DNA of 36,672 bases from a virus (IMGVR_UViG_3300045988_092103), one strand, 5' to 3'. Counted from the first letter of the stretch, positions 4,543 through 26,631 are shown. The notes: generated by a model not told the origin, from the letters alone. Numbers and translations are program-made.

Positions 4543-5661
4543 TTAGTCGTCTTCCTCTTCATCTTTCTCACCCTCCCGGTTCTCTAAAATGATTCCATTT
4601 GCATTTATGTCTCCGTCCGCTTTTACCAGAATGTATTTCTCCCCGTTAATTACTTCTAATGTAACGAGGTCTGTTCTGTCTGCGCTTACCGATACATGTG
4701 CATCTGAAAGTCCAATTTCAAATGTTTTCGTGCTCACTGTGTTGTCCGCATCGATTTCAGCCGCGTCACAGTCTTTTGTTTTTTCTGCTGCCAGTTCCGG
4801 ATCTATCCCGATGCTTTTTAATACGTTTTCCAGCTCCGCGCCTTTTAATATCCGGTTGTTGGATTCTGCTTTTATTTCACGGATTCTTCCAAGGTAATGA
4901 TAAATATCTTTCGCCTGTTCCAGGCTTACTTTTCCGTCTGCTGCATTTAACCCTTCCCTAAAAGCTTCTTTTTGCTCTTTTGGTGTGGATGGCATCCCGC
5001 ATCGGAGTGTCTGCGTGATCAGGCCTGCGTCCGGTTTATCCGGAACTTTGCTGTAGTACCAGATATGTTCCGGATCTTCGTGGCGATCTGTAAATGCCGG
5101 ATATAAAAATCCTTGTGTCGGCATACTTACTACCCAGTCTCTTGTACGTTCCTGAATATCTGCCAGTTCTGGTTTATAAGATAATCCTGCCGCCGATAAG
5201 CTTACCGGGCAGATACATCCGATCATGTACTCATAAACCTCTTCGCTTTCATCCAGATCCGCTCCGTCCGTGGCAATTCCCGGAATGTCGTAGATTCCAC
5301 TGGCAATTAGAATCAGGGAATACCCTTTATTCGATATGTCAATAGACTCTGCAATCTCTTCCAGGAAGATCTGGCGTACATCGTTGTCTTCTAATCCTGT
5401 TTTTACAATCGTGGCCAGATGCTGCTTTCTTGTTTTTCCCTCAAAATCCAGCTGAAACATATTTCTTCCAGGCTTTCCAGATAAAACTTTTTTGAAGATA
5501 TCCAAGTATTTGAATGTTTCCGTCTCTTCGAGGTTTAAAAAGTTTTTTACAAATTCCAACCTACAGTTCCGGTCATTATCTACGATATATCCGGTTATCC
5601 TTGTGATATTGTACCTGTCTATTGTTAGAGTTCTTTTGATCTCCAGTAACTCTTTCTTCAT
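4543..5661 (-). CDS. DUF4317 family protein
   Basis: The ATG at 5661 is preceded by GAAAGGAG. The product reads MKKELLEIKRTLTIDRYNITRITGYIV ... FKYLDIFKKVLSGKPGRN ... ICPV ... GFLYPAFTDR, which matches the remembered DUF4317 pattern. Length is about 372 aa. Confidence 0.65.
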   Translation of the reverse strand: MKKELLEIKRTLTIDRYNITRITGYIVDNDRNCRLEFVKNFLNLEETETFKYLDIFKKVLSGKPGRNMFQLDFEGKTRKQHLATIVKTGLEDNDVRQIFLEEIAESIDISNKGYSLILIASGIYDIPGIATDGADLDESEEVYEYMIGCICPVSLSAAGLSYKPELADIQERTRDWVVSMPTQGFLYPAFTDRHEDPEHIWYYSKVPDKPDAGLITQTLRCGMPSTPKEQKEAFREGLNAADGKVSLEQAKDIYHYLGRIREIKAESNNRILKGAELENVLKSIGIDPELAAEKTKDCDAAEIDADNTVSTKTFEIGLSDAHVSVSADRTDLVTLEVINGEKYILVKADGDINANGIILENREGEKDEEEDD

Positions 5662-5736
5662 GTCGCTCCTTTCTGGCTGCCGCACCGGGCAGCCATGCAC
5701 TCTGCGAAATTGTGATATATTAACTTCCTGTGGTGC

Positions 5737-6087
5737 CTATAAATAATTCTTTCCGGCGTTTTTCATCCACTCTTCCCTGGTGTGGGTTCTTTCGTACACT
5801 TCCTGGGCTTTCGCCATCAGGATCCTCGCGTTCTTGGCATTGTTATGGACTGCTGCCGGTCCGTTCCGGTGATGTTCCAGGCAGAGATTTACTTTTAACC
5901 CTTCCGCCTCTGCAAATGCATGGGTGTTACCAAACAAAACATGATGCTCTTCCAGATATGGCTTGCATGTAAAATCTCCATCCAGTAACATGCACAGGTA
6001 GCACCGACGATCGCCTTTTGGCTGCATGATGCTTTTTTTGTGCTTCTTACGTTTCTTCTTAGTTGGTTTCGGAAACATCATATTCAC
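5737..6087 (-). CDS. Putative HNHc-type (Cys/His-rich) nuclease
   Basis: A basic N-terminus is followed by CYLC ... EEHHVLFG ... LCLEHHRNGPAAVH. This C-x2-C / HH / C-x2-HH pattern resembles the phage 'putative HNHc nuclease' family. Confidence 0.5.
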   Translation of the reverse strand: MNMMFPKPTKKKRKKHKKSIMQPKGDRRCYLCMLLDGDFTCKPYLEEHHVLFGNTHAFAEAEGLKVNLCLEHHRNGPAAVHNNAKNARILMAKAQEVYERTHTREEWMKNAGKNYL

Positions 6088-6325
6088 CAGATAACACCTC
6101 CCCGTTTTGATCTACTTTTTCGTTTAAATACAGATACCATTCCTGTGAACTGTGTACTTTTTGGGTTGTCTCTGCAAGGTACAGAGCCGCATGATACAAG
6201 GGAATTGTCTGGAGATATTCCCGGCGGGTTAATTTGATTTTGGGAAATGTGGCCAGATATTCTTCTACGGTTACATTTTTCGGGCAGGCATCCGGTTTCC
6301 AGTCTTCTACACTTAACTGCTCCAT
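6059..6325 (-). CDS. Hypothetical protein
   Basis: The ATG at 6325 lies 1 nt after the ParB-like stop and is preceded by AAGGAG. The track ORF extends to 6400. Confidence 0.6.
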   Translation of the reverse strand: MEQLSVEDWKPDACPKNVTVEEYLATFPKIKLTRREYLQTIPLYHAALYLAETTQKVHSSQEWYLYLNEKVDQNGEVLSGEYDVSETN

Positions 6326-6326
6326 C

Positions 6327-7682
6327 TTAGGACTCCTTTTTGTATAGCTCATGGTTGCCGTAAACCAAATCCGCCTCTTCTCTTTCATAACTCCAGCCAT
6401 AACGCATTAAGATTTTGAAGCATTCCTGGTATCTCTTTCCGGCATCCTCTTTGTATTCTCCGGAATACTCTACTAAATCCCCGGTATAATCATCTATCAT
6501 GTTGTTCATTGCAATCAGGAGCAACACCTGCGTATCCAGTGTTTGTATTTTTTCTTCTGCTTCTTCCTTTTCTTTCTCATCTGCATCATACAGGCTTTTC
6601 CCGGTAAAAAATTTTAGAACCATTCCATTTCCTAACCAACAGGACTTCTCCATCATGTTCCGGATCATCTTTTCAATGATTTTCTGGCGTTCCTCATCTT
6701 TTAACAGTTCGATTTTTCCGTCTGCTATTGTCCGGATGAATTCTTTTTTTCTTTCATTCATTTTTTTCTGTAAAGCTTTCAACTGCTTTGTCTTTTTTCT
6801 CTGCCTGTCCCATTCCGTTTCAACCTTTTCTGATTTCGGGAGTTTTTCCACTACATCAATCCCATTCCAACCATCCAGATAATACAGTTCTTTTCCGCGG
6901 ATATTGATTCTCTTTGGTGGTTCTTTATCCAGGCTGAACGTTTTTACATCTTTCAGCTCTGCCGTATACTTCTTTTTTTCTATCTCCTTTGTGGCTTTCT
7001 TGATTCCTGCTTCCTCCAGAAGCTCAACAATAATCTTTTTGTTCTTCTCCCTCTCTTTGTTTTTAATCTCCGCTTCTACTTTCCACTTAATCTGTCTTGA
7101 GTCTGCAGCATCTTTCAATATTCTGTTCCTTGTTTCAACATCTTCGATTCTCGACAGTTCAGCAAGATCTTTTAGATTCAGCTGATATACCCCGTCTTCA
7201 TCCGTCTTTTCCTTCACCAGATCCCGGTCAAGCTTCGCAATCTCCAGCCTCCGGCGCACGGTTGTTCTGGAGAATCCGGTCTTTTCCGCAATCTGTTCTT
7301 CCGTATCTCCAAGGTTAAGCATCATCTGGAAGCCTTCCGCCTGTTCCAGGACCGTCAGATCGATGCGCTGCATATTCTCTTCCAGCATGGTTCCGACCTG
7401 GTCTTTATAGCTCATGTCCTCTACGATCCGGCATGGATACATAGTTACGCCTGCCATTTTTCCGGCGGCGAACCGGCGGTGCCCGATGATCAGCGTGTAT
7501 CCTTCTTCATGGTGTGTACGTTTTTCGTCCCAGTATCCCGGAATGACCGTAAGGTTCTGCATGATCCCTTTTTTCTTGATTGACTCACTCAGCTCCGTCA
7601 GATCACCCAGGTCTTTTCGTGGGTTATCCGGATGCTGGTGAATCAGCTTGGCGTTGATATTCGTTATTCCACTGGTTGTCAT
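6327..7682 (-). CDS. ParB/Srx N-terminal domain protein with an HTH and a long charged C-terminus
   Basis: IHQHPDNPRKDLGDLTELSESIKKKGIMQNLTV ... LIIGHRRFAAGKMAG is a ParB-box-like motif. TEEQIAEKTGFSRTTVRRRLEIAKL is an HTH. Confidence 0.8.
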   Translation of the reverse strand: MTTSGITNINAKLIHQHPDNPRKDLGDLTELSESIKKKGIMQNLTVIPGYWDEKRTHHEEGYTLIIGHRRFAAGKMAGVTMYPCRIVEDMSYKDQVGTMLEENMQRIDLTVLEQAEGFQMMLNLGDTEEQIAEKTGFSRTTVRRRLEIAKLDRDLVKEKTDEDGVYQLNLKDLAELSRIEDVETRNRILKDAADSRQIKWKVEAEIKNKEREKNKKIIVELLEEAGIKKATKEIEKKKYTAELKDVKTFSLDKEPPKRINIRGKELYYLDGWNGIDVVEKLPKSEKVETEWDRQRKKTKQLKALQKKMNERKKEFIRTIADGKIELLKDEERQKIIEKMIRNMMEKSCWLGNGMVLKFFTGKSLYDADEKEKEEAEEKIQTLDTQVLLLIAMNNMIDDYTGDLVEYSGEYKEDAGKRYQECFKILMRYGWSYEREEADLVYGNHELYKKES

Positions 7683-7954: not shown

Positions 7955-8384
7955 GGTTTTCTTCCTTTTCCCGCATTTTAGACTGTAGTCTATCGGAATA
8001 CCGCGTAGACTCAGAAAACTCTAAGCTTACACGATGTTTTTCCATCTGCTCCGACAGCTCCTGCCAGAGCTCTTTGTTCTTGATCTCTTTTCCATGTGGT
8101 CTGCGCCACTCTTCCCGTTTCCATTTGTCCATATTTCCTTCGTTTATGGTTGTGACCAGGAACTGATCCGGCGTGTAGGCAGTCACTTCACACGGTCGGA
8201 GCATTCTCAGACCGACAAGGATAGCAATCATACTCATACGGTGGTATGTCGTCTTCTGTTCGGTCTCGATCTGTGCTTTCACTGCCGGTCCTTTCTTAGT
8301 CTCGCATTCTACCAGAGCGATGCACTTTCCGTTTTTTGCGGTTGGTCCCCGGAAGTTTACTTCCGTGAACAGTTCTATCTTCAT
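7944..8384 (-). CDS. RNase HI-like protein with non-canonical active-site positions
   Basis: The ATG is preceded by AAGGAGGA. By-eye alignment to E. coli RNase HI pairs IELFTEVN with VEIFTDGS, TTYHRMSMIAIL with TTNNRMELMAAI, CEVTAYTPDQFL with CEVILSTDSQYV, and KEIKNKELWQEL with KPVKNVDLWQRL. Confidence 0.6.
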   Translation of the reverse strand: MKIELFTEVNFRGPTAKNGKCIALVECETKKGPAVKAQIETEQKTTYHRMSMIAILVGLRMLRPCEVTAYTPDQFLVTTINEGNMDKWKREEWRRPHGKEIKNKELWQELSEQMEKHRVSLEFSESTRYSDRLQSKMREKEENHEI

Positions 8385-9135
8385 CTTCCGTCCTCCTTAT
8401 CCGGATCATTTCATAATGCCGATATGGAAATCCGGTTGCTTTGTTGATTCCTTCAAAATAGGTGTCCTTTACTATGTAGTATCCTTTTTTCGGTCTCGGT
8501 TCTTTTTGCCACCGGTACAGAATATCCGTCTCCGGTTCCGGAAGCGGCATATTTCTGGATCTTGAAAAACTCGCTTCTTTGATCTTGTGATCCAGAACAC
8601 CGTCCTCCACATATTTTTTCTGTGTTTTCTCATTTTTTGTGATGTACTGGGCGAGTTTCCGGAACTCTCCTTTTTCGTATAGCAACTGCTTATTCCGAAC
8701 CTTCCCATGCTTCCAGGCTGCAGCTATGATCAGATCAGTATCCTGGATTCGGTTCAGAACTACATGAACATGCCAGTTGCCAGACGGCGTGCATTCAATA
8801 TTCCGGAGCCACCGGAGTTCCTCGCCACGTTTCCGGTATTCTTTCTTGCAATATTTATAAAAATCTTCAAAATCTTTTACCGCTTGCTTCATGTCCGCCG
8901 GACGTTCTTCTTTCGGATATGTGAGAGTAAAGAAGTAATCATTCACTTTGAAATACATCCGGAGTCTGTGACGTGCCTTCCTTTCCCTGGTCCATTGGTT
9001 GACCTGCTCCACTTCCTCCGGTGTGGCTTTCTTCTTCTTGGCTCTCTTCTCTCCCGGTGCTCCATACCTTCCGTCCAGATATTCCTGTCTCTCTATAACG
9101 TTTCCCAAATCGTATGTCACTCGTCTGATTCTCAT
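8296..9135 (-). CDS. HUH-type rolling-circle replication initiator (Rep)
   Basis: Three Rep motifs occur in order: FFTLTYP (motif 1), HVHVVL (HUH, motif 2) and AQYITKN (YxxK, motif 3). The 3' end overlaps the next gene by 89 nt. Confidence 0.7.
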   Translation of the reverse strand: MRIRRVTYDLGNVIERQEYLDGRYGAPGEKRAKKKKATPEEVEQVNQWTRERKARHRLRMYFKVNDYFFTLTYPKEERPADMKQAVKDFEDFYKYCKKEYRKRGEELRWLRNIECTPSGNWHVHVVLNRIQDTDLIIAAAWKHGKVRNKQLLYEKGEFRKLAQYITKNEKTQKKYVEDGVLDHKIKEASFSRSRNMPLPEPETDILYRWQKEPRPKKGYYIVKDTYFEGINKATGFPYRHYEMIRIRRTEDEDRTVHGSKLPGTNRKKRKVHRSGRMRD

Positions 9136-11024: not shown

Positions 11025-11744
11025 TTATTCCTTTAAAAACTTATTTATGAAATATTGCTGACCTTTTCCTGTAACTTTCGTGGTCTTATTGATCCTTACG
11101 GATCCATCCGGATTATTTACCGTGGATTCTTTTACCTGGAACAACTGCAATTCCATCGATTTCTGTGTTGGCATGTTATAATCCGTTCCTTTTCTCCGGA
11201 TCAGATAGCCATTTGCACGCAGCCACTCAAAGAGTCTCTTCGGACCAGTATCCACTCCATTCTGCTTCAGGAGCTTTGCAAGATCCGCAATCAGGATTGT
11301 GCTCTGACTTGTTGCTACCGCATCCGCGAATACTTCTTTCGGTTTCATCCGGACATTGTCCTCCAGAAGGAGTGCATTGTTGTGCTTCAGCTTTTCGATG
11401 GTCTTATCTGCCATCTTTAATGCTCTGGCAAAAACCTGTTCCGGTGTGTTCCAAGCTTTCTCCAGATCTATAAAGTATTGGCGGATCTGTTTGCCTTCCG
11501 GTGATCGCTGGAGCATGCAGATTTCTTTTGCCATATCAATTTTCATGGCAAATTCCTCGGAAGGTCTGCCACCGGTACTTTCTTCCATTTTTGGAAAAAA
11601 GTCTTTTCCATCTTCAAAGCCATATTCGCACATGCGCCTGAACCAAGTTGTAAAATTGCTTTTAATATTTAATCGATCATAAAGCTCTCTGGCTGAAACA
11701 GTAGGTTCTTCTGTTTCATAATTTATTTTTAGCAAATCCTGCAT
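11025..11744 (-). CDS. Phage antirepressor (AntA-like N-terminus, KilAC-like C-terminus)
   Basis: The N-terminus reads VSARELYDRLNIKSNFTTWFRRMCEYGFEDGKDF. The C-terminus reads IADLAKLLKQNGVDTGPKRLFEWLRANGYLIRR ... PTQKSMELQLF. Confidence 0.85.
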   Translation of the reverse strand: MQDLLKINYETEEPTVSARELYDRLNIKSNFTTWFRRMCEYGFEDGKDFFPKMEESTGGRPSEEFAMKIDMAKEICMLQRSPEGKQIRQYFIDLEKAWNTPEQVFARALKMADKTIEKLKHNNALLLEDNVRMKPKEVFADAVATSQSTILIADLAKLLKQNGVDTGPKRLFEWLRANGYLIRRKGTDYNMPTQKSMELQLFQVKESTVNNPDGSVRINKTTKVTGKGQQYFINKFLKE

Positions 11745-14175: not shown

Positions 14176-15663
14176 ATGAGCCTAAAATATGCATACGGAT
14201 ATATCCGTGTATCCACCCACGATCAGGAAGAAATCTCTCCGGATTCCCAGGAGCATCTCCTCCGGGATTATGCAGCCAAAAATAATATTGTAATCCTGAA
14301 GATCTTCACGGATCTCGGTATCTCCGGAAGAAAAGCCGATAAACGTCCCGGATTTCAGGAAATGATTGGTCTGGCCAAAGGTCCCGATCATCCGGTTGAC
14401 TGCATCCTGGTATGGAAATTCAGCCGGTTCGCCCGGAATCAGGAAGAGTCCATTGTGTATAAATCTCTTTTAAAGAAGCAACATAATGTAGATGTGATCA
14501 GTATCTCCGAGCCACTGGCAGACGGTCCGTTCGGCTCTCTGATCGAACGTATCATAGAGTGGATGGACGAATACTACTCCATTCGCTTATCCGGTGAGGT
14601 ATTCCGTGGCATGAAAGAAAACGCTACCCGCGGTGCATACCAGGCAAGACCGCCGCTCGGCTATAAAGTTGTAGAACGTGGTAAGCCTCCGGTTATTGTT
14701 CCGGAAGAAGCTGCGATTGTCCGTATGATCTTTGATAAATATGTAAATGGGAAAATGAGTTTCTTTGATATTGCCCGACATCTGAACTCTCTCGGACTGA
14801 AAACGTCCCATGGGAAAGCTTTTGAACGGCGCAGTATCGAATATATTATTCAAAATCCATCCTACTGCGGTATGATCCGATGGAACCGGATGGAAAACGC
14901 CACCAACCGGATCAAAAACCAGGACGAGTGGATCATTGCTGACGGAATGCAGGAGGCGATTATAAGTAAAGAACTCTTCGATGCCGCCCAGGAACGCCTG
15001 AAAAAGATCTATAAACCGGTTGGAAAGCGCCCCTCTTCTACATATAAGCACTGGCTGTCCGGACTGCTGAAATGCCCGGTATGTGGGCGCACACTGACCG
15101 CTACGACCATGGAGCGAGCCAACGGGGAAAAATATGCGTACTTCTCCTGCTACGGATACAGCAAAGGAAAATGTGATAAACCACACGGTGTAAGCTCTCT
15201 GGTGATTGAAAAGGAAGTCCTGAAAGCATTAGAAGAAGCTCTTGGTTCCAATTCGATTGTTTATGAAATGCGCGAAATTCGCCCACAGGAGCTTTCTAAT
15301 GAGCGTACCCTTATAAGCGAACGCCTTGCCAGTTTGAAAGGTAAAGAGGACAGGATACGTGCGTCATACAGAGAGGGTATTGATACACTGGAAGAATATA
15401 AAGAAAACAAAGCTCTGATTGCCAAAGAAAGAGATGCTCTGGAACAGCAGCTTGCGGAACTTGAAGAAAATGCACCGGATAAAACTCCGGAAGATTCTAC
15501 TCCTAAAATGCTGGATCGGGTAAGCTCCGTCCATGATATTCTGGTTTCTGATTCTTACTCTCTTGTCCAGAAAAATGAAGCTTTAAAGCAGATTATAGAT
15601 AAGATTGTTTACGATCGGGAATCCGATACTCTGAAAATTCATTTCTTTTTATACCACTCATAA
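14176..15663 (+). CDS. Large serine recombinase (integrase)
   Basis: The resolvase-type N-terminus is YGYIRVSTHDQ. A recombinase domain follows, then the zinc ribbon CPVCGRTL...FSCYGYSKGKC and a C-terminal coiled coil. Confidence 0.92.
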   Translation: MSLKYAYGYIRVSTHDQEEISPDSQEHLLRDYAAKNNIVILKIFTDLGISGRKADKRPGFQEMIGLAKGPDHPVDCILVWKFSRFARNQEESIVYKSLLKKQHNVDVISISEPLADGPFGSLIERIIEWMDEYYSIRLSGEVFRGMKENATRGAYQARPPLGYKVVERGKPPVIVPEEAAIVRMIFDKYVNGKMSFFDIARHLNSLGLKTSHGKAFERRSIEYIIQNPSYCGMIRWNRMENATNRIKNQDEWIIADGMQEAIISKELFDAAQERLKKIYKPVGKRPSSTYKHWLSGLLKCPVCGRTLTATTMERANGEKYAYFSCYGYSKGKCDKPHGVSSLVIEKEVLKALEEALGSNSIVYEMREIRPQELSNERTLISERLASLKGKEDRIRASYREGIDTLEEYKENKALIAKERDALEQQLAELEENAPDKTPEDSTPKMLDRVSSVHDILVSDSYSLVQKNEALKQIIDKIVYDRESDTLKIHFFLYHS

Positions 15664-19430: not shown

Positions 19431-19802
19431 TTACTGATATACCATTTCAGACATTTCCAAAATGCATCCTTTGAGCATTTCATTTTCCTCCTCCGCTTTT
19501 TTAAGTCGTGCCTCCAGAGCTGCTATCCGGCTGTCCGGATCTTCTCCTTCCCGGTACATTAACACACCAAGAATGCCTGCCGTGTACTTCACGATTGCAT
19601 CGAGCTTTGTGTAGTTTTCATACACAACGGTATCTGCATCCCGTTCGCTCACAGACATTCTCTTAGTTGTTGTCTGATCAGAGAATAAAGTCTTCAGCTG
19701 CTCCTCGGATGCTGAAATGGTCTTGATCAGAAGTGCGCCATCCGTCTGCTCAGTGACCTGCTGGATCTGCAGTTCCTGACCATCATTGAATGTGATTTTC
19801 AT
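19431..19802 (-). CDS. Hypothetical protein with a C-terminal coiled coil
   Basis: The ATG at 19802 is preceded by AAAGGGG. The track's longer form (to 19904) runs across shufflon site D and is rejected. Confidence 0.6.
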   Translation of the reverse strand: MKITFNDGQELQIQQVTEQTDGALLIKTISASEEQLKTLFSDQTTTKRMSVSERDADTVVYENYTKLDAIVKYTAGILGVLMYREGEDPDSRIAALEARLKKAEEENEMLKGCILEMSEMVYQ

Positions 19803-19838
19803 TTTTCTGTTTGCCCCTTTCTTCTTTTTAGAGGGATT

Positions 19839-19857
19839 CTGAACTAAATAGCAATTT
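19839..19857 (+). repeat. Shufflon crossover core D
   Basis: ctgaactaaatagcaattt has 2 mismatches to core B. A 29-bp match to site C (19831-19859 against rc of 20589-20617) has 1 mismatch. Confidence 0.8.
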
Positions 19858-20251
19858 ATTAAATGTAAAAGCAGATTTGACAAAAGCAAATAATAATATT
19901 GCAATCATAAACAGTAATCTGATTTCAATCGTAGAACGTGGAACCAAAAATAACTACAATTACACAAAATATTCCAACGGCGACATGGTTATGTGGAGTA
20001 AATATACTTGGAATACCAATCTTGCAACCAGTTGGTATAACTGGTATTTTGCTTCTAGTGCTGCGGTTGGTTTTCCAGTAGCATTCAAACAAGCGCCTTT
20101 AATTATAGTATCTCCGGCAAAGACTAACGAACTGTATGGTCTTGGAGTTACCGAAGTGACTACAACCGGGTACAAGCTTACAGCATACAGTCCAAAGCAA
20201 GGAATGTGTTATGTACAAGCTGATACGCTTATAATCGGAAAATGGAAATAA
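19858..20251 (+). other. Silent tail-fibre C-terminal cassette D (130 codons after the shared Leu)
   Basis: The frame is open from the core onward. A TAG lies two codons upstream of the DSELNSNL stretch, and there is no SD. The pattern VGFPVAFKQAPLIIVSP...TTTGYKLTAY...LIIGKW looks like a fibre-tip domain. Confidence 0.75.
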
Positions 20252-20253
20252 TT

Positions 20254-20590
20254 CTAATATGTTCCGATTGCAATATAGTCCATATAAAAAGCTTTATTTG
20301 TATATGCTGCAAAATATCCTAATCGAAGTTGGGAGATTCCATTCAAGGTTGTGGTTTTTCCAAGAATCATAACCCAATCGTCACTATTTTGAGTTATTGT
20401 ACAACCTCTTAAAAATTTAAACGGTTTTGGAAATGTTGATTGTTCTATTTTGGTACTTACACCCGTATATCCAGTGCCATTTTTTTGCAATGAGGCATAT
20501 ACGTGAATTGTTCCGGCACATATTTGAATCCTATTTTTAGGGAATCGTATACAAATGCTTTTTGTGGATGAATCTATATAAGTTTCATAT
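20254..20590 (-). other. Silent tail-fibre C-terminal cassette C (111 codons)
   Basis: It is in frame behind core C (DSELSSNL). No credible SD exists for the track's M at 20667. Confidence 0.75.
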
Positions 20591-20609
20591 AAATTGCTAC
20601 TTAGTTCAG
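20591..20609 (-). repeat. Shufflon crossover core C
   Basis: The plus strand reads aaattgctacttagttcag, 1 mismatch to core A and in the same orientation as A. Confidence 0.8.
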
Positions 20610-20705
20610 AATCCCTCCTTTTACTGGTTGATAAAGTTACATATATAAAAGCGCATAACAAAAACACCCGACCAATGCCGAGTGTAAATAAATAAGTTTA
20701 TTTAC

Positions 20706-21695
20706 TTATGCGCTTAAATATTTAAAGTGATGATACCGTACACCTTCCTGATTCACTGTACAATATCGCATGGTTGTCTCTGACTTTGCGTGTCCAGCAA
20801 ATATCATAGCCTCCTGCAGAGGCATTCCGCGGTTCAGTGCATTTGTCAGAGCTGTTCTCCGGAATCGATGCGGATACGCATTTTCTACGCCCGCCTTCTC
20901 TCCAATCCGCCGGATGATATCCTCAATTCCTGTTTTCGTCAGCCGGCTATTCGGTTTCTTGCTTCCGACAAATAGCGCCGGATCATTGTCTTTTCTGCTT
21001 TCCAGATATTCTTTCAAATACATGTTGGTTCGTTCATTAATGTACACCGTCCTTTCTTTCGCTCCTTTTCCATATACAATCAGCTCTTTATTCGCATACC
21101 GGATATCTTCCCTGTTAATCTCTGAAAGCTCCGATACTCTGACTGCTGTGCTATATAGGAATTCTAGTAACGCTTTATCCCGAAGACTGCTGCATTTACG
21201 CAGCATCCGCTCCCGTTCTTCATCAGTATATGGTTTCCGGATCTTCTTTTCTACTTTGATAGATTCCACCAGCACCATCGGATTTCTCCGAATCCGGTCA
21301 CGATCTCGCAGCCATCCGAAGAAGCTGCTATACACTGTCCGGACATTCTTTAGTGTCTGGTTTGCTACCTTGCGGATCATTTTATAAGCCCGCATGAATC
21401 CAGAGATATCTCCAGAATCTATGTTCTTCACTGGCTTATTGATATAGGTCAGTAACCGAACCAGTTCATACCGATATTGCTTCACTGTCTTTGATGCTTT
21501 TCCTTCCAGTGCTTTACTCATCAGAAACTCTTCCAGATCCACTTCCCAGCTCCTGTCTACAACCTGCAGGTCCGTTTCCTGGATTACTCTGCACCCGGTA
21601 AATGTCATCTGTAGCACTTCTTTTAGCTCCCGCAGCTGTACTTCATCAAGAATCAGCTGCATTCTTCGCAATACATCCATTATTTTTGCTTCCAT
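20706..21695 (-). CDS. Tyrosine site-specific recombinase (XerC/D / Rci-like), putative shufflon invertase
   Basis: The SD is AAGGAG. Catalytic signature elements are AVRVSEL (Arg), GKGAKER (Lys), HRFRRT (His-x-x-Arg), AGHAKSETT (His) and MRYC (Tyr). There is an N-terminal SAM-like domain. Confidence 0.9.
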   Translation of the reverse strand: MEAKIMDVLRRMQLILDEVQLRELKEVLQMTFTGCRVIQETDLQVVDRSWEVDLEEFLMSKALEGKASKTVKQYRYELVRLLTYINKPVKNIDSGDISGFMRAYKMIRKVANQTLKNVRTVYSSFFGWLRDRDRIRRNPMVLVESIKVEKKIRKPYTDEERERMLRKCSSLRDKALLEFLYSTAVRVSELSEINREDIRYANKELIVYGKGAKERTVYINERTNMYLKEYLESRKDNDPALFVGSKKPNSRLTKTGIEDIIRRIGEKAGVENAYPHRFRRTALTNALNRGMPLQEAMIFAGHAKSETTMRYCTVNQEGVRYHHFKYLSA

Positions 21696-21735
21696 ACGTT
21701 GCTCCTTTTTTGCTTTCAGTATAGCAACTGGCGTA

Positions 21736-21754
21736 CTGAATTAAGTAGCAATTT
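21736..21754 (+). repeat. Shufflon crossover core B
   Basis: ctgaattaagtagcaattt is the exact reverse complement of 22430-22448. Confidence 0.85.
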
Positions 21755-22097
21755 GAAAACGGCAACTGCTGATTCTGGTTGGAAATATATGACTAATGCA
21801 AATAATCTTTCAGAAAAGCTAAAATTCCGCAAAATAGGTCACATGGTATTTGTTGCTGGATCGATAAGATTTTCAGATAATGGAAAATTTGCAAACGATC
21901 AGGCTCTCGGCAGTGTCCCGTCAGGAATGACACCAAATGGTTATGACGAATTCGAGTGTCTTATTCCGATAGCTATGCATAATGGTGGACCTGCTGGAAC
22001 ACAAGCACGTATATACATAAAAAATGGTGGAGTATATATCGTCGGTACAGATAGTGCCTCATTCGTAATGATTGCAACAACGGCTTATTTTAGCTAA
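21755..22097 (+). other. Silent tail-fibre C-terminal cassette B (113 codons)
   Basis: It is in frame behind core B (TELSSNL). The track start is a TTG abutting the recombinase start, with no SD. Confidence 0.75.
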
Positions 22098-22932
22098 CTG
22101 GTATAAAAATAGCTCTTGTCGCAAAAAGAGTCCATGTGCCTCCATTTTTGTACGAAGTAATATGAAGCTTATCGCCTTTGCTACAATTTCCTGCAAAAGT
22201 AGAAACTAATTTGTAATAGTTTCCGTTATTTCCCATATTTACATTGTTTAATGCACAAGCGATTTCCTGTTTATAGCTTTCACTGCTGATATTGGAGGAA
22301 ACTATAACGATGAAAGCATATGTAATGCCAGCTTTCAAAAAGCTATTGGTATCCAAATTTGCTGTTCCTTGCTCCGTTGAATCAATGAATATTGGTTTCC
22401 TGTTCTCTAAAACAGTGTTAGTTTTGGTTAAATTGCTACTTAATTCAGCAATCGAATCCTGTGTCGCAAACAGCTGCTTCACTTCTGTAATATTAAGTCC
22501 ATTAAGAGTTACCTGATACAACGGCATGTCCGCAATCAAATCCCCTGCTTGGATATCTCCTGTAGTATATCCCGGTACTGCCGGACCGCTTTCTTTTGGC
22601 GTTCCTTGAATTACTTTCAACACAAGTGATTCTTCTTTTGTGTTCTGATCCCTGCTGTATCGTGCCACGATAAGGTCTACTCTCTTCATTCCCTGTGACC
22701 CATTTGCAATCGTTAGTGAATCATATGTATTCTTTTTGATTGATGCAGCACACCCTTGATGCATGATAACTCCATCACGTACCTTGATTTCATTATTTGA
22801 CGACACTTCAGCCTTTAACCGTGATCCAGTTCGCAAAACATATGATTCTGCTCCAAAAATTCCAATATTCACATCTCTGTCCTGTTCAGCAGTAACATGT
22901 GGACTTCCTGTATATCCTGTGATGATATCCAT
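22090..22932 (-). CDS. Tail fibre / receptor-binding protein; constant N-terminus (22449..22932) plus the currently expressed cassette A (22090..22429)
   Basis: It follows the Tal gene with an ATGA-type junction. Core A encodes AELSSNL at aa 162-168, followed by 112 aa. Confidence 0.8.
   Translation of the reverse strand: MDIITGYTGSPHVTAEQDRDVNIGIFGAESYVLRTGSRLKAEVSSNNEIKVRDGVIMHQGCAASIKKNTYDSLTIANGSQGMKRVDLIVARYSRDQNTKEESLVLKVIQGTPKESGPAVPGYTTGDIQAGDLIADMPLYQVTLNGLNITEVKQLFATQDSIAELSSNLTKTNTVLENRKPIFIDSTEQGTANLDTNSFLKAGITYAFIVIVSSNISSESYKQEIACALNNVNMGNNGNYYKLVSTFAGNCSKGDKLHITSYKNGGTWTLFATRAIFIPVS
22430..22448 (-). repeat. Shufflon crossover core A (inside the expressed fibre gene)
   Basis: The plus strand reads aaattgctacttaattcag, i.e. 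minus-strand CTGAATTAAGTAGCAATTT. Confidence 0.85.
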
Positions 22933-23936
22933 TAAGACTCTCCTTCCAATTTATATTCTATTTTTTCTTTACCCTCTGAAATTGTCCAAATCTTACGTCC
23001 GATTGGTTTCTTCATGCTTGCGCCGGTAAGATAATCTCGTCCACCTACAACATCTCCAACATCCATGTTTCCTTCGATTTTCTCCATAGTCATATCATAT
23101 TCTGTTTTATTCTTTGATTCTTCCAGTTTTTTTATCCCATTTTTCAGGAGATCATCTCGTTCCGATCCTGAACTGTCGTAGATTTCCACAATTTCATCCG
23201 TCCCTTTAAAATACTGCTCCTGTCCTATTTCCCCATTCTGGCCAACATACAGATGAATTACCAGGCGATCTTTCAATTCTCCTTTTCCAAGACAAATCAA
23301 ATGATTAACGCCTCTTCTGTTATCATCCATTTTGAAGTTCATATTCTGATCATTTGAAAATTCATATTCCGATGAATAATCTACAATAGGAACTGCTTTT
23401 ACCTGCACGTATCCCATTTCGTATTTATCGCCCTGGATATACTTAATTTCCATACGATATCCAACAGACTGCAGCATTTTTCGGAGTCCTTCATGAAGTG
23501 TGCAATACCGATCGAACTGATAATTCGTTACTTCTACACCGGTATCTTCACTCACGCCGTAAAAAAGCCCTGGGAAAGCCTCCTGCACTTTCTGCTTTAC
23601 GATTGTATTCAGTTCGCCTTCTACCGTTGCATAGTCCTGTCCACTTCCAGGCTGAATAATCTTCTTTGTCATCATTCCACGCCACGTATACCCTTTTGTG
23701 GTAATGCTATTCGCCTTTGTACTTGTCGAGATTTCCTGTACAATCCCACCATACTCCGTATCAGGAACATACAGTTGGCTTCCAAATTCAATCGTTCCAT
23801 CCCAACCTGACCGTTTAAATTCAATTTCAAAATCATTTATGGAGTTCTTTTCATCCTCTCCGATTTCCATATCAATATTTGCATTTAGGATATATCCAAG
23901 TTCTTTACCATTTGGATCTGTGTAGATTAACTCCAT
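22932..23936 (-). CDS. Tail-associated / baseplate hub protein (short Tal, gp27-like N-terminal part)
   Basis: 334 aa, immediately after Dit. The assignment rests on synteny and size, and the gene is coupled to both neighbours. Confidence 0.7.
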   Translation of the reverse strand: MELIYTDPNGKELGYILNANIDMEIGEDEKNSINDFEIEFKRSGWDGTIEFGSQLYVPDTEYGGIVQEISTSTKANSITTKGYTWRGMMTKKIIQPGSGQDYATVEGELNTIVKQKVQEAFPGLFYGVSEDTGVEVTNYQFDRYCTLHEGLRKMLQSVGYRMEIKYIQGDKYEMGYVQVKAVPIVDYSSEYEFSNDQNMNFKMDDNRRGVNHLICLGKGELKDRLVIHLYVGQNGEIGQEQYFKGTDEIVEIYDSSGSERDDLLKNGIKKLEESKNKTEYDMTMEKIEGNMDVGDVVGGRDYLTGASMKKPIGRKIWTISEGKEKIEYKLEGES

Positions 23937-24766
23937 TCTGGCACGCTCCTCTCCTTATACACTTTGATATCAAAACCAAATTCGCCACTCCAGTTCAATG
24001 TCAGCATGCCTGACGGAATTAAAGAAAACACACTTTTATCTTTTGCTCTTTTCGCAAAAATGTTTTGGATCGTTCCATTTCCAAGATGTTTCGTAATCGT
24101 CTTATCCCTGCTCTTTATCAAAATGTATTCTCCATTTTCCAAAGTCTCATATATCTGATATGGATAATCATTGATAATGATTCTTGGATCTGCACATGGT
24201 CCATATATCACAATTTCAAAATTATTATCACGAAAATGATCAATAAACCAGTTCTGTGTGCCAGCGCTTTTTCTTGAATAATCATATGGATAGTCATACG
24301 GATATTCCAAAAATCCGTATGCTTCTCCTTTGTTTGCCGAATCCGGATAAAAGCTCTGTTCCTGTTCCATTGACCAAAACGGGTACGGACAGTATATTTC
24401 TATCTTGCAATCTGTTCTGCTATTATTTTCACCTGAAACCTCATTGCTCGATTTCTTTATATATCCGTCAATGTAATATTTTCCATAATAAATCCTTCCA
24501 GGTGACAGATTCACCACATCATATTCAAACGCATTGGTAAGCTTATTCAGAAACTGCTTTCTCTCAAATTCTTTCCCTCGCACCGTAAGTGTAATATCAT
24601 ACACCACCGGTTCTTTCGTGAAAGAATTTACCGCCACTCCCATTTCTTTTTCTGTAGTATTTGGTATCCATTCGTAAGCGTGGAAATATCCGGAGGTTGC
24701 TCTCATCTTATCACCAATCAGATTATATTCCTCTCCATTGGAACACACATATTTGATCTCAATCAT
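23927..24766 (-). CDS. Distal tail protein (Dit)
   Basis: 279 aa directly downstream of the tape measure gene, with ATGA-type coupling. Confidence 0.75.
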   Translation of the reverse strand: MIEIKYVCSNGEEYNLIGDKMRATSGYFHAYEWIPNTTEKEMGVAVNSFTKEPVVYDITLTVRGKEFERKQFLNKLTNAFEYDVVNLSPGRIYYGKYYIDGYIKKSSNEVSGENNSRTDCKIEIYCPYPFWSMEQEQSFYPDSANKGEAYGFLEYPYDYPYDYSRKSAGTQNWFIDHFRDNNFEIVIYGPCADPRIIINDYPYQIYETLENGEYILIKSRDKTITKHLGNGTIQNIFAKRAKDKSVFSLIPSGMLTLNWSGEFGFDIKVYKERSVPEWS

Positions 24767-26631
24767 TCAAGCACAACCCCCATTTCTCTTAATACTCTCA
24801 TTACCTCTCTGTCATTCAGATTGATCACGATAGTTTCTCCTCGTTTGGATGTTGTTTTCAAATACTCCAACAACTGTTCCAGTTTTTCAATGAGCGCATT
24901 GTTCTCGTTTTCAGTGCTATTTCTTCCAGAAACCGCAAAATCCAAGCTTGTCCCGACAGGTTTCTTGAGTGATTTTTGGAGTTCTTCTGCAGCATTAGAG
25001 ATCAACGATGTGTTTCCGGTAAGTCCATTCGCAATACCGGTGTCTATCATCTCTCCAACAAACATTCCCCAACGTGACGGTGAGTGAATCCCGAAGAATG
25101 CCAGAACATTTTCTTTAAATCCACCAAGAACACCTTTTACAGCATCCCATAGCATATGTGCCGCCGAACGAAGTCCGGATGCGATACCGCTTATGATATT
25201 GATTCCAATACTTCCCCAGTTCTGGCTCGTAAAAGCATTCACAATTGCGCTGATAATTGCCGGTATCTGTCCAACCAAATTCGGAATAGCACGTATCAAG
25301 CCTGCTGCCAGCTTAGCGATAATCGTAATACCACTCTGAAGAATCTGTGGAAGATTCTGACCAATTGACGCTACAAAACGCACGATTGCAGTCGCTGCTG
25401 CCTGGGCAATCTGTGGCAAATTATTTATGATGCCATTTACAAGTTTCAGCAACAATGATGCACCTGCACTCAAAACAGTCGGAAACATAGAAATAATTGT
25501 GTTGGCAAAATATGTAATAATATTGCCCGCCATCGTTATTACTTGCGGTAAATTTTGCAAGATTCCATTCACAATGTTTGTTATGAAATCCACACCATTC
25601 TGCAACAAGATCGGGAGTTGCTCCTGGATTCCGATATTAAACTGATCCATAATCCGCATTGCGCTCTGATAAAGAGTCGGTATTCCTGTTGTGATTCCGC
25701 TTGCAATTTGCGGAATCAGTCCAGACGCTGCAGCAAACAGTTGTGGACCGAGTGCCGTTACAAATGTAACGATTGCTGATGGAAGTGCAGATATAACATT
25801 CCATACTGCCGGAAGCAGATTTCCAACTGCAAAGGTTATGATCGTATTCGCCAGTTCATTAAGTGCCGGTCCTACATCCATTCCCAGAGCAATTTCTCCC
25901 ATTACATTTTTAGCCGCTGCTTTCATCTGGTTGAACGATCCAGATATAGTCGTTGCCGCTTCTTTTGCTGTCGTTCCGGTAATATCCAACTGTCCCTGGA
26001 TCACGTGAATTGCACTGTAGACATCTGATAGATTATCAATATTGTATTCCACGCCACTGATTTTCTGTGCATCTGCCAAAAGACGCTCCATCTCCGACTT
26101 CGTACCACCATATCCAAGCTTCAGGTTGTCCAGCATTGTATAGTTCTGTTTGGCGAATCCCTGATATGCATTTTTGATGTCTTCCATATTGGTTCCCATC
26201 TTATTCGCATTATCAGACATATCTACCATTGCCATATCTGCCACATCTGCAGCTTTGGAGGTGTCGCCAGCAAGGGAACTAAGAAGGCTCGCTGAAAAGC
26301 TTGTAGTTAGTTCCATGTAGTCATTTGCACTCATTCCTGCTGTCTGGTAGGCTTTTGCCGCATTTGCTTTCACTTTATCGGCAGAATCTTTAAATAATGT
26401 TTCGATTCCACCAAGACTTTGTTCGAGTGCTGCACCTTCACTGATGCTCGCCGACAGAGCTTTCCCGATTGCTGCTGCGGCAATAACCTTTTTGATCATG
26501 CCAACCATTTTCCCACCAAAAGAACTTCCGGCTGAGTCTGCTTCCGGCTCTATTTCTTTTTGAATTCTTCCCTGAATTCCTACCGCCGATGGTATGATCT
26601 GCACATACGCTTTTGCAAGTTCCGTAGCCAT
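24763..26631 (-). CDS. Tape measure protein
   Basis: 622 aa, Ala/Gly/Ile-rich, with reiterated NGIxxNLPQI-type helical motifs. It lies downstream of the chaperone pair. Confidence 0.9.
   Translation of the reverse strand: MATELAKAYVQIIPSAVGIQGRIQKEIEPEADSAGSSFGGKMVGMIKKVIAAAAIGKALSASISEGAALEQSLGGIETLFKDSADKVKANAAKAYQTAGMSANDYMELTTSFSASLLSSLAGDTSKAADVADMAMVDMSDNANKMGTNMEDIKNAYQGFAKQNYTMLDNLKLGYGGTKSEMERLLADAQKISGVEYNIDNLSDVYSAIHVIQGQLDITGTTAKEAATTISGSFNQMKAAAKNVMGEIALGMDVGPALNELANTIITFAVGNLLPAVWNVISALPSAIVTFVTALGPQLFAAASGLIPQIASGITTGIPTLYQSAMRIMDQFNIGIQEQLPILLQNGVDFITNIVNGILQNLPQVITMAGNIITYFANTIISMFPTVLSAGASLLLKLVNGIINNLPQIAQAAATAIVRFVASIGQNLPQILQSGITIIAKLAAGLIRAIPNLVGQIPAIISAIVNAFTSQNWGSIGINIISGIASGLRSAAHMLWDAVKGVLGGFKENVLAFFGIHSPSRWGMFVGEMIDTGIANGLTGNTSLISNAAEELQKSLKKPVGTSLDFAVSGRNSTENENNALIEKLEQLLEYLKTTSKRGETIVINLNDREVMRVLREMGVVLE

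Follow-up and report, generated by a model that had tools for sequence, protein, structure and literature searches.

A probable multiple-inversion shufflon behind the tail-fibre gene of a temperate Lachnospiraceae gut phage

Organization of the locus

The 36,672-nt stretch IMGVR_UViG_3300045988_092103, which as a whole is called the window here and is numbered from its first letter, is an essentially complete temperate phage genome of 36.7 kb. Its carrier appears to be a temperate, siphovirus-like phage of the human-gut bacterium Coprococcus comes, a host assignment based on the names of matching proteins (e.g. WP_346997825.1). Between its tail-fibre gene and the next late gene lie four copies of a 19-bp core, CTGAATTAAGTAGCAATTT, in alternating orientation, together with four alternative C-terminal cassettes (tips) and a tyrosine recombinase gene, and this locus is very probably a multiple-inversion shufflon that changes the receptor-binding tip of the siphovirus-like tail fibre. 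An earlier note, made from the sequence alone, had proposed such a shufflon with an adjacent recombinase. In the direction of the fibre gene, the features are:

22449..22932, minus strand: N-terminal, constant portion (aa 1-161) of the tail-fibre/receptor-binding protein, following directly on the Tal-like gene
22430..22448, minus strand: site 1 (A), core with 0 mismatches, within the expressed fibre gene, encoding (A)ELSSNL, aa 162-168
22090..22429, minus strand: tip A, presently expressed, 112 aa and stop; tip family T00, joined to all four flank types in relatives
21755..22097, plus strand: tip B, silent, 113 codons, convergent with tip A, the stop regions overlapping by 8 nt
21736..21754, plus strand: site 2 (B), core with 0 mismatches, on the 5′ side of the recombinase gene
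20706..21695, minus strand: Xer-like tyrosine recombinase, 329 aa, with PF00589 (1e-32) and a SAM-like PF13495 domain, between sites 2 and 3
20591..20617, minus strand: site 3 (C), core at 20591-20609 with 1 mismatch, plus the extended arm GAGGGATT common with site 4
20254..20590, minus strand: tip C, silent open reading frame (ORF), 111 codons and stop; its fusion to the constant N-terminus is known as WP_346997825.1
19858..20251, plus strand: tip D, silent, 130 codons and stop; coiled-coil helix and H-type-lectin-like beta-sandwich
19831..19857, plus strand: site 4 (D), core at 19839-19857 with 2 mismatches, plus the extended arm; 36 nt upstream of the next late gene

At a tolerance of three mismatches, four core matches were observed against 0.04 expected, and four were reached in none of 100 shuffles, which upholds the positions, strands and mismatch counts given for the cores in the earlier note. 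Translation of the 280-aa fibre ORF (22090-22932, minus strand) places A-ELSSNL at aa 162-168, and the identical frame is kept at the other cores, past which 112 (expressed tip A), 113 (B), 111 (C) and 130 (D) in-frame codons are open. Pairwise BLASTP among the four tips returned no similarity (all E>3), in line with the earlier description of four unrelated C-termini. Sites 3 and 4 have in common a 29-nt inverted repeat of 97% identity (one mismatch), and at site 4 an in-frame TAG stands just upstream of R-D-S-E-L-N-S-N-L, both of which had been noticed before.

A Shine-Dalgarno-like stretch, AGGAGG/AGAGGG, directly precedes the cores of sites 3 and 4 (20610-20621 and 19827-19838) and lies within a 17-nt extended arm found at these two sites only; the arm may be an extended binding arm or a translational element. 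Since the sole start-like codon after this stretch, a CTG, is out of frame and followed by two codons and a stop, the cassettes have no credible start of their own, and what had been said earlier of the 113-, 111- and 130-codon cassettes holds despite the AGGAGG-like stretch at C and D. The ORF and core positions also agree with the two convergent cassette pairs that had been placed around the recombinase gene.

Natural isoforms of the locus

Scanning IMG/VR for relatives of the recombinase yielded 65 loci, and 120 sites were sorted by their tip and by the fixed flank to which it is joined, which is the fibre N-terminus, the downstream gene or one of the two sides, 5′ or 3′, of the recombinase gene. 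In addition, 16 isoforms were built in silico by inverting the window between cores and were compared with the natural contigs. In loci with a 95-99% identical recombinase, cassette pairs were found in every position and orientation, and the sites always followed the order +, −, recombinase, +, −. Tips A, C and D were each seen on all four fixed flanks, and tip B on three. The window's own N-terminal flank is present in 13 metagenome contigs, the same N-terminus (99-100% nucleotide identity) standing on at least nine different tips. Across the relatives, 152 of 167 sites are followed by 98-157 open in-frame codons, with about 18 unrelated tip families.

Several contigs match particular rearrangements, written here as the numbers of the two recombined sites. 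Contig L087 is colinear over 4397 nt (99.93%) with the product of 3x4, then 2x3, then 1x4, and L096 over 3261 nt (99.9%) with the single 1x4 product. Contigs L090 and L095 have 100% identical flanks and differ by 725 nt inverted exactly at the cores, and the sole difference between L103 and L105 is an inverted recombinase segment. The tip changes exactly at site 1 in the junctions of L087, L096 and L101-L110. Junctions changed inside the cores had been proposed as the thing to look for in sequencing reads, those of other metagenomes included; in the assembled contigs seen here, they support the central inference that inversion between cores puts alternative tips on one N-terminus. The earlier picture has to be corrected in that the recombinase gene itself sits on an invertible segment (2x3, or B x C): it occurs in both orientations in near-identical phages (L103 versus L105), and among 24 contigs with an identical fibre carrying tip C it points one way in about 11 and the opposite way in about 8.

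The fibre predicted from the window with tip C on the constant N-terminus (N+C) is found verbatim as WP_346997825.1 (Coprococcus comes; 94 contigs), which bears out that cassette C can be delivered to this N-terminus. The N+D prediction equals WP_173684925.1 except for two substitutions (29 contigs), the exact, substitution-free N+D protein not being found in the protein collection; together with the 1x4 product in L096, this protein corroborates the proposed A x D inversion. The window's own A isoform of the fibre was found in five contigs. For the proposed fusion of cassette B, one part stands, as tip B occurs on sister N-termini (P0121, P0122) and, in an extended form, on the window's exact N-terminus (P0123).

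The same unique flank is present twice on contigs L010, L066/L067, L104 and L106, as expected where an assembler merges isoforms that co-exist in one sample. A tandem duplication of recombinase, T05 and T04 (the latter two being tip families) was observed at L104:6237-10141; either the assembler produced it from mixed isoforms, or direct sites really underwent unequal exchange. Contig ends fall inside the module in 27 of 52 cases, a number that is suggestive only, the loci having been selected for carrying the recombinase.

Site anatomy and the crossover interval

Among the 120 sites, the base at core positions 3, 4, 6 and 10 varies with the fixed flank (71-91% of entropy explained; 0 of 300 permutations as good) and that at positions 14, 17 and 18 with the tip (71-100% of entropy explained), and positions 11-13, 15 and 16 are invariant. 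Since the flank-linked positions end at 10 and the tip-linked ones start at 14, the crossover lies between positions 10 and 14, an interval of 3-6 bp. As predicted, tip D gains CTGAATTAAG on moving to the fibre N-terminus from its place on the downstream flank (CTGAACTAAA...). Information content is high from position −1 to position 19 and falls steeply towards the cassette, the flank-side arm alone being conserved in working sites. At some non-expressed sites in relatives this arm contains a TAA, which would become GAA on recombination with the fibre site.

In some loci the recombinase-3′ arm abuts the downstream arm without cassettes. These 'empty' sites read CTGAACTAAG-TAGCAAT-TTTAGTTCAG, a 10-7-10 palindrome with the canonical geometry of a tyrosine-recombinase site, and were found at L015:1855, L055:6493, L056:2401, L057:1843, L058:6494, L059:4440 and L094:4062, with a spacer of 6 nt in some; they could be the ancestral full site or a collapsed locus. 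The four-site layout of +, −, recombinase, +, − is kept where the recombinase is 64-72% identical (Faecalimonas and other Lachnospiraceae), and the central motif is constant within a locus and differs between loci, being TAGCAA, TGGCAA or TAACAA. Tyrosine recombinases usually require spacer identity between partner sites, which the within-locus uniformity of the motif fits.

The recombinase and its flanks

The recombinase carries the full R-K-HxxR-H-Y signature that had been read from the sequence, with R186, K213, H276, R279, H302 and Y311 aligning to the catalytic residues of XerD/XerA. It aligns end to end with these proteins, has no arm-binding domain and ends 18 aa past Y311. All its NCBIfam scores are under the cut-offs, the top one being XerA (200.7 bits versus a cut-off of 220). 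Among species-representative genomes, matches reached only 72% identity, in Faecalimonas and Mediterraneibacter metagenome-assembled genomes. Two features lie in its flanks:

21696..21735, minus strand: recombinase 5′ flank 'R5', containing the extended −10-like TGCTATACT and a ribosome-binding site, AAAGGAG
20664..20685, minus strand: intrinsic-terminator-like hairpin and T-run right past the recombinase stop, in the 3′ flank 'R3', inside the invertible 2x3 segment

A consensus scan found no −35/−10 pair in 21696..21735, and TGCTATACT is a possible promoter element of the recombinase. The putative terminator faces the late operon in the window's orientation, in which it could block read-through into the late and lysis genes; it would not do so when flipped.

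More distant relatives of the recombinase, 33-35% identical, lie between the last tail gene and the holin gene in Terrisporobacter phage TPELB_ph1 (L068; PP197244.1, 17645-18640), C. perfringens phage phiCp-D (L069; MW478291.1, 21639-22616) and a C. botulinum phage-plasmid (L115; NZ_CP022402.1, 7105-8091), and no convincing cassettes or inverted core repeats were found beside these three genes. The archaeon Methanosphaera sp. ISO3-F5 has a plasmid on which a 40%-identical recombinase adjoins hypothetical genes (L114; NZ_CP118754.1, 67616-68614).

The alternative tips

Tip D is confidently modelled with a lectin-like fold. Its AlphaFold2 model (pLDDT 90) consists of a 25-residue helix followed by a beta-sandwich, and Foldseek matched it to the C-terminal domain of an R-pyocin fibre (6cxb, 9.5e-5), to Helix pomatia agglutinin (2ccv, 8.7e-4) and, in BFVD, to many predicted phage tail fibre tips (3.5e-9). 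By sequence, it matches the C-terminus of the tail fibre phrog_2712 (2.5e-11). From this model, a carbohydrate-binding, host-range-determining role of tip D is likely. Tip B has a weak match to the C-terminus of the minor tail protein phrog_3639, and PDB sequence and profile searches with the fibre gave nothing significant.

Tip B was also found on a second, unrelated constant N-terminus (MAYTPLRTDFKDD...FFVDALAVKELNSNL), to which it is fused via the variant core AAGAGTTAAATAGCAATTT (L025:4100-4523; P0126, P0133), and the tip pool is therefore common to at least two fibre families. In a variant of tip B, a 21-aa heptad-like insertion, TNANAKISALSTELATTNTNL, lies between the core and the globular part (L049:1387-1483, L077, P0123, P0133); tips therefore differ not only in their head domain but also in the length of the shaft.

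Proposed mechanism and alternative explanations

In the fibre direction, the proposed layout is the constant N-terminus, site 1 (+), tip A and tip B facing each other, site 2 (−), the recombinase, site 3 (+), tip C and tip D facing each other, site 4 (−) and the next late gene. The recombinase would bind the conserved 10-bp arm CTGAAYTAAR at each site and exchange strands in the adjoining TAGCAAT spacer, so that any two oppositely oriented sites could recombine and the intervening DNA be inverted. By this scheme, 1x2 or 3x4 would flip a cassette pair, 2x3 the recombinase gene and 1x4 the whole module, for a total of 16 arrangements and four fibre proteins, which would be 279-298 aa long with aa 1-168 in common and a wholly different tip of 111-130 aa. 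Only the tip joined to site 1 would be translated, the frame elsewhere being closed or lacking a usable upstream start; in the window, the TAG before site 4 accounts for silence in this way, and in some relatives the arm reads TAA. Switching would take place within one clone or clonal lysogen, and frequently within one lysogen or burst, and the tips would bind different cell-surface glycans and thereby alter host range.

The comparative support for a shufflon is unusually strong as far as sequences go, and several findings weigh against it. The exact fusion of tip B to the window's own N-terminus, the other part of the cassette B claim, was not found in the protein collection. The isoforms come from separate assemblies or from chimeric contigs, and the latter could reflect co-resident sister phages. 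Contig L102 follows an in-silico 1x3 deletion between direct sites of the window colinearly over 10,378 nt (99.3%), which explains its lack of the recombinase; the system is thus not strictly inversion-only, and the earlier picture stands for the inversions and has to be widened by deletions that occur in nature. L101 and L102 (both 5001-6700) consist of the N-terminus, tips C and D facing each other and the downstream gene, keeping an inverted site pair with no recombinase in cis, and in L055-L059 the recombinase is truncated to aa 199-329, with a single tip and a collapsed site; some lineages are therefore locked or reliant on an enzyme in trans. By its position, family and co-occurrence, the recombinase is the likely invertase. 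Finally, the AlphaFold2 model of the full-length fibre (27 close homologues) reached a pLDDT of only 31.7, and no fold was assigned to tips A, B and C.

Evolutionary mosaicism by general homologous recombination, RecA-type or phage-encoded, at the ELSSNL-coding stretches, with the recombinase serving dimer resolution or a second integration, would account for cassette pairs that vary among otherwise 100% identical phages (L087, L096 and L103 have T04/T05 in place of the window's A/B), an exchange that recombination in conserved flanks could explain, and would accommodate the related recombinases that lie at the tail-lysis junctions of TPELB_ph1, phiCp-D and the C. botulinum phage-plasmid without detectable cassettes. 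We consider this explanation improbable, given that junction identity extends over just 19-29 bp and the exchange point lies within 3-6 bp, that the sites always alternate in orientation about the recombinase gene, that the central motif shows concerted evolution within loci, that inversions set apart sequences 99.9-100% identical, that the recombinase gene is bounded by sites and present in both orientations, and that its nearest annotated relatives are the invertases of hsdS shufflons.

It is also hardly probable that the shufflon is real and its inversion is catalysed in trans by a recombinase of the host or a co-resident prophage, the adjacent gene being a passenger. Sites 2 and 3 enclose the gene in all full loci that were examined (recombinase 64-100% identical); in L055-L059 a truncated recombinase goes along with a single tip and a collapsed site, and site motif and recombinase diverge together between loci. 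In favour of an enzyme acting in trans, the recombinase-less L101 and L102 retain an intact inverted site pair around C/D, and for a second Bifidobacterium prophage inversion locus without a flanking recombinase the authors proposed an invertase in trans, citing the globally acting Mpi of B. fragilis (PMC6109161).

That the three extra cassettes are independent small paralogous tail or lectin genes with their own starts, ELSSNL being a mere conserved motif, is very unlikely: gene callers often annotate cassettes as ORFs of 101-164 aa and an AGGAGG-like stretch lies ahead of sites C and D, but there is no in-frame start at a workable distance, TAG or TAA closes the frame upstream at non-expressed sites, tips B and D are antisense to the late operon, other assemblies have each tip at the C-terminal end of a full-length fibre, and tip D opens with a coiled-coil helix that prolongs the fibre shaft.

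Relation to known inversion systems

The concept of a tyrosine-recombinase shufflon of a receptor-binding protein is already known from Rin, which was described in Bifidobacterium prophages in 2018 (Mavrich et al.) as the first invertase of the tyrosine family that is phage-encoded and acts on a receptor-binding protein (PMC6109161) and was later found in Eggerthella prophages (PMC8778435). Given Rin, the earlier note's starting point that all fibre switches of phages are driven by serine invertases is out of date; the locus described here has another recombinase lineage, site, layout and host phylum. Both systems have a phage-encoded Xer-like tyrosine recombinase without an arm domain, distinct from the integrase and beside the gene of the receptor-binding protein, and in both a constant N-terminal part is combined with promoterless, mutually dissimilar C-terminal cassettes at short repeats, with inversions seen and tips of H-type-lectin type reported.

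Bifidobacterium phage PMBT6 (L099; MK932884.1, 29704-32100; locus 4989-7385) was found to have an unannotated Rin-type shufflon beside a 290-aa 'integrase', where TTCCGTAACCC occurs three times direct, once of these in the 264-aa constant gene, and once inverted. The constant domains are homologous, the fibre of the window showing 26% identity to the constant protein of PMBT6 over 175 aa (E 7e-13), and in both the repeat stands just past this domain. The recombinases, in contrast, show no detectable relationship outside the catalytic motif (BLASTP against PMBT6, E 0.018), and the site is CTGAATTAAGTAGCAATTT here versus the 11-bp rix TTCCCTAACCC (TTCCGTAACCC in PMBT6). Further, convergent pairs flank a central, invertible recombinase gene here, whereas Rin has tandem cassettes, seen in PMBT6 as well, and rin at the far end, and the hosts are Bacillota (Lachnospiraceae) here versus Actinomycetota.

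The closest annotated relatives of the recombinase are those of type I restriction-modification (hsdS) shufflons, with 35.5-38.8% identity over the full length, including an N-terminal extension of about 50 aa (37% over 328 aa for one of them, E 3e-81). They belong to shufflons of Bacillota, for example on plasmids of Ligilactobacillus salivarius, Lactococcus cremoris and Enterococcus faecium, and three top plasmid matches were confirmed to lie within hsdM-hsdS-hsdR loci. In those systems too, a constant part is joined to alternative specificity domains, and convergent half-genes lie beside the recombinase with more target sequence on its other side, pJM2A having four sites in the order +, −, recombinase, +, −. 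What is varied there is a restriction enzyme's specificity subunit, and here a tail fibre after a Tal-like gene; the site of pJM2A is TAAATCATCATTTAG, and hsdS shufflons belong to cells or plasmids and do not lie in a phage late operon. The hsdS inversion loci of pneumococci are of the same class, and their invertase PsrA is listed in PMC9881135.

The R64/IncI1 pilV-Rci shufflon resembles the locus in having a tyrosine recombinase, several invertible segments, alternative C-termini of an adhesin-like protein and 19-bp repeats, as well as an asymmetric site with one conserved arm, a spacer of about 7 bp and a variable other arm (sfx, per PMC11852207). Compared with Rci by its description there (PMC11852207), the present recombinase lacks the extra C-terminal domain and ends as XerD does; its best matches are XerA, XerC, XerD and the hsdS invertases, and its target is a phage fibre, not a pilus tip. 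In addition, Rci acts on sfx by inversion only, whereas a natural 1x3 deletion product, possibly made by the recombinase, exists here (L102). The term 'Rci-style shufflon' used earlier can hence be kept as a functional analogy, with regard to the asymmetric 19-bp site and the multiple inversions, but not for the enzyme, which among annotated proteins is closest to the hsdS invertases.

The inversion systems Gin of Mu, Cin of P1 and Min of p15B likewise swap the C-terminal host-range part of a tail fibre, and Min is also multi-segment. Their enzymes are small serine invertases, which need an enhancer and Fis. The enzyme here belongs to PF00589, the only PF00239 protein is a large, integrase-type one 4 kb away, and no tail-fibre assembly gene stands beside the cassettes. 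The locus is not a diversity-generating retroelement, as had been stated: no reverse transcriptase domain was found among the large ORFs scanned (small ORFs not all covered), and the repeats are the 19-29-bp cores, not a pair of template and variable repeats. A report on Tyrovirus describes tyrosine recombinases with an adjacent palindromic site and no fibre inversion (PMC9703825), and in the full-text literature searched (subscription-only papers outside its scope) there was no fibre shufflon from Lachnospiraceae or Clostridia.

Implications for phage fibres in the gut

Tyrosine-recombinase shufflons of receptor-binding proteins, which in the searchable literature are confined to Actinomycetota prophages, are extended by the present locus to abundant human-gut Lachnospiraceae phages. 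The number of unrelated, probably glycan-binding tips on offer may be four for one prophage and at least 18 for its lineage, which bears on host-range prediction, on phage-host dynamics and on gut virome assemblies, whose contigs break or turn chimeric at the locus. The recombinase ties phage fibre switching to the phase-variation systems of hsdS. A compact site, with a 10-bp arm, a spacer of about 7 bp and a crossover within 3-6 bp, could be delineated from public data alone, and the recombinase is a candidate for the small toolkit of shufflon invertases sought in synthetic biology (PMC11852207).

A wider reading, which we regard as tentative and rather unlikely in its entirety, would combine three elements: an independent invention of the fibre shufflon on the chassis of the Bacillota hsdS shufflons, exchange of cassette pairs between genomes, and modulation of read-through. 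The re-used chassis may be the recombinase subfamily and the four-site topology with convergent pairs. Through the same sites, the recombinase may swap whole cassette pairs when phage genomes reside together, a recombinase-mediated cassette exchange in nature; if true, Lachnospiraceae phages, among them those with the second, unrelated constant N-terminus, would thereby keep up a common pool of at least 18 tips. Flipping of the terminator-bearing recombinase segment might modulate read-through into the downstream late and lysis genes.

Genome context

Tape measure, Dit-position and Tal-like genes lie upstream of the fibre gene, and the holin and endolysin genes lie downstream. The neighbouring and other marker genes are:

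24763-26631, minus strand: tape measure protein, by size and place after the tail-tube gene
23927-24766, minus strand: gene at the Dit position, without a Pfam match; Dit by position only, as the annotated Dit of phiCs5676-1
22932-23936, minus strand: Tal-like minor tail protein (phrog_538 'minor tail protein', E 7e-76, and Sipho_Gp37)
19431..19802, minus strand: 'dn', first gene downstream of the shufflon and its fixed right-hand flank, 123 aa from the ATG at 19802; phrog_12931
14176..15663, plus strand: large serine recombinase, 495 aa (PF00239, PF07508, PF13408)

The 'dn' gene borders the outermost site in relatives as well. The large serine recombinase is probably the phage integrase, leaving the tyrosine recombinase free for another role. 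The N-terminal ~200 aa of the fibre match PHROGs 25635, 9994 and 13141 (E 1e-77 to 1e-54), whose C-termini differ. By DNA, the phage GenBank collection gave a single weak match, phiCs5676-1, and no close relative; phiCs5676-1 has the same fibre N-terminus, but an IS200-type transposase where the shufflon would be. A ParB-like protein, a Rep protein (ORF2/G2P-like) and an AntA/KilAC antirepressor are also encoded, at 6327-7682, 8296-9135 and 11025-11744 (all on the minus strand), and this set, together with the serine integrase, is normal temperate-phage content.

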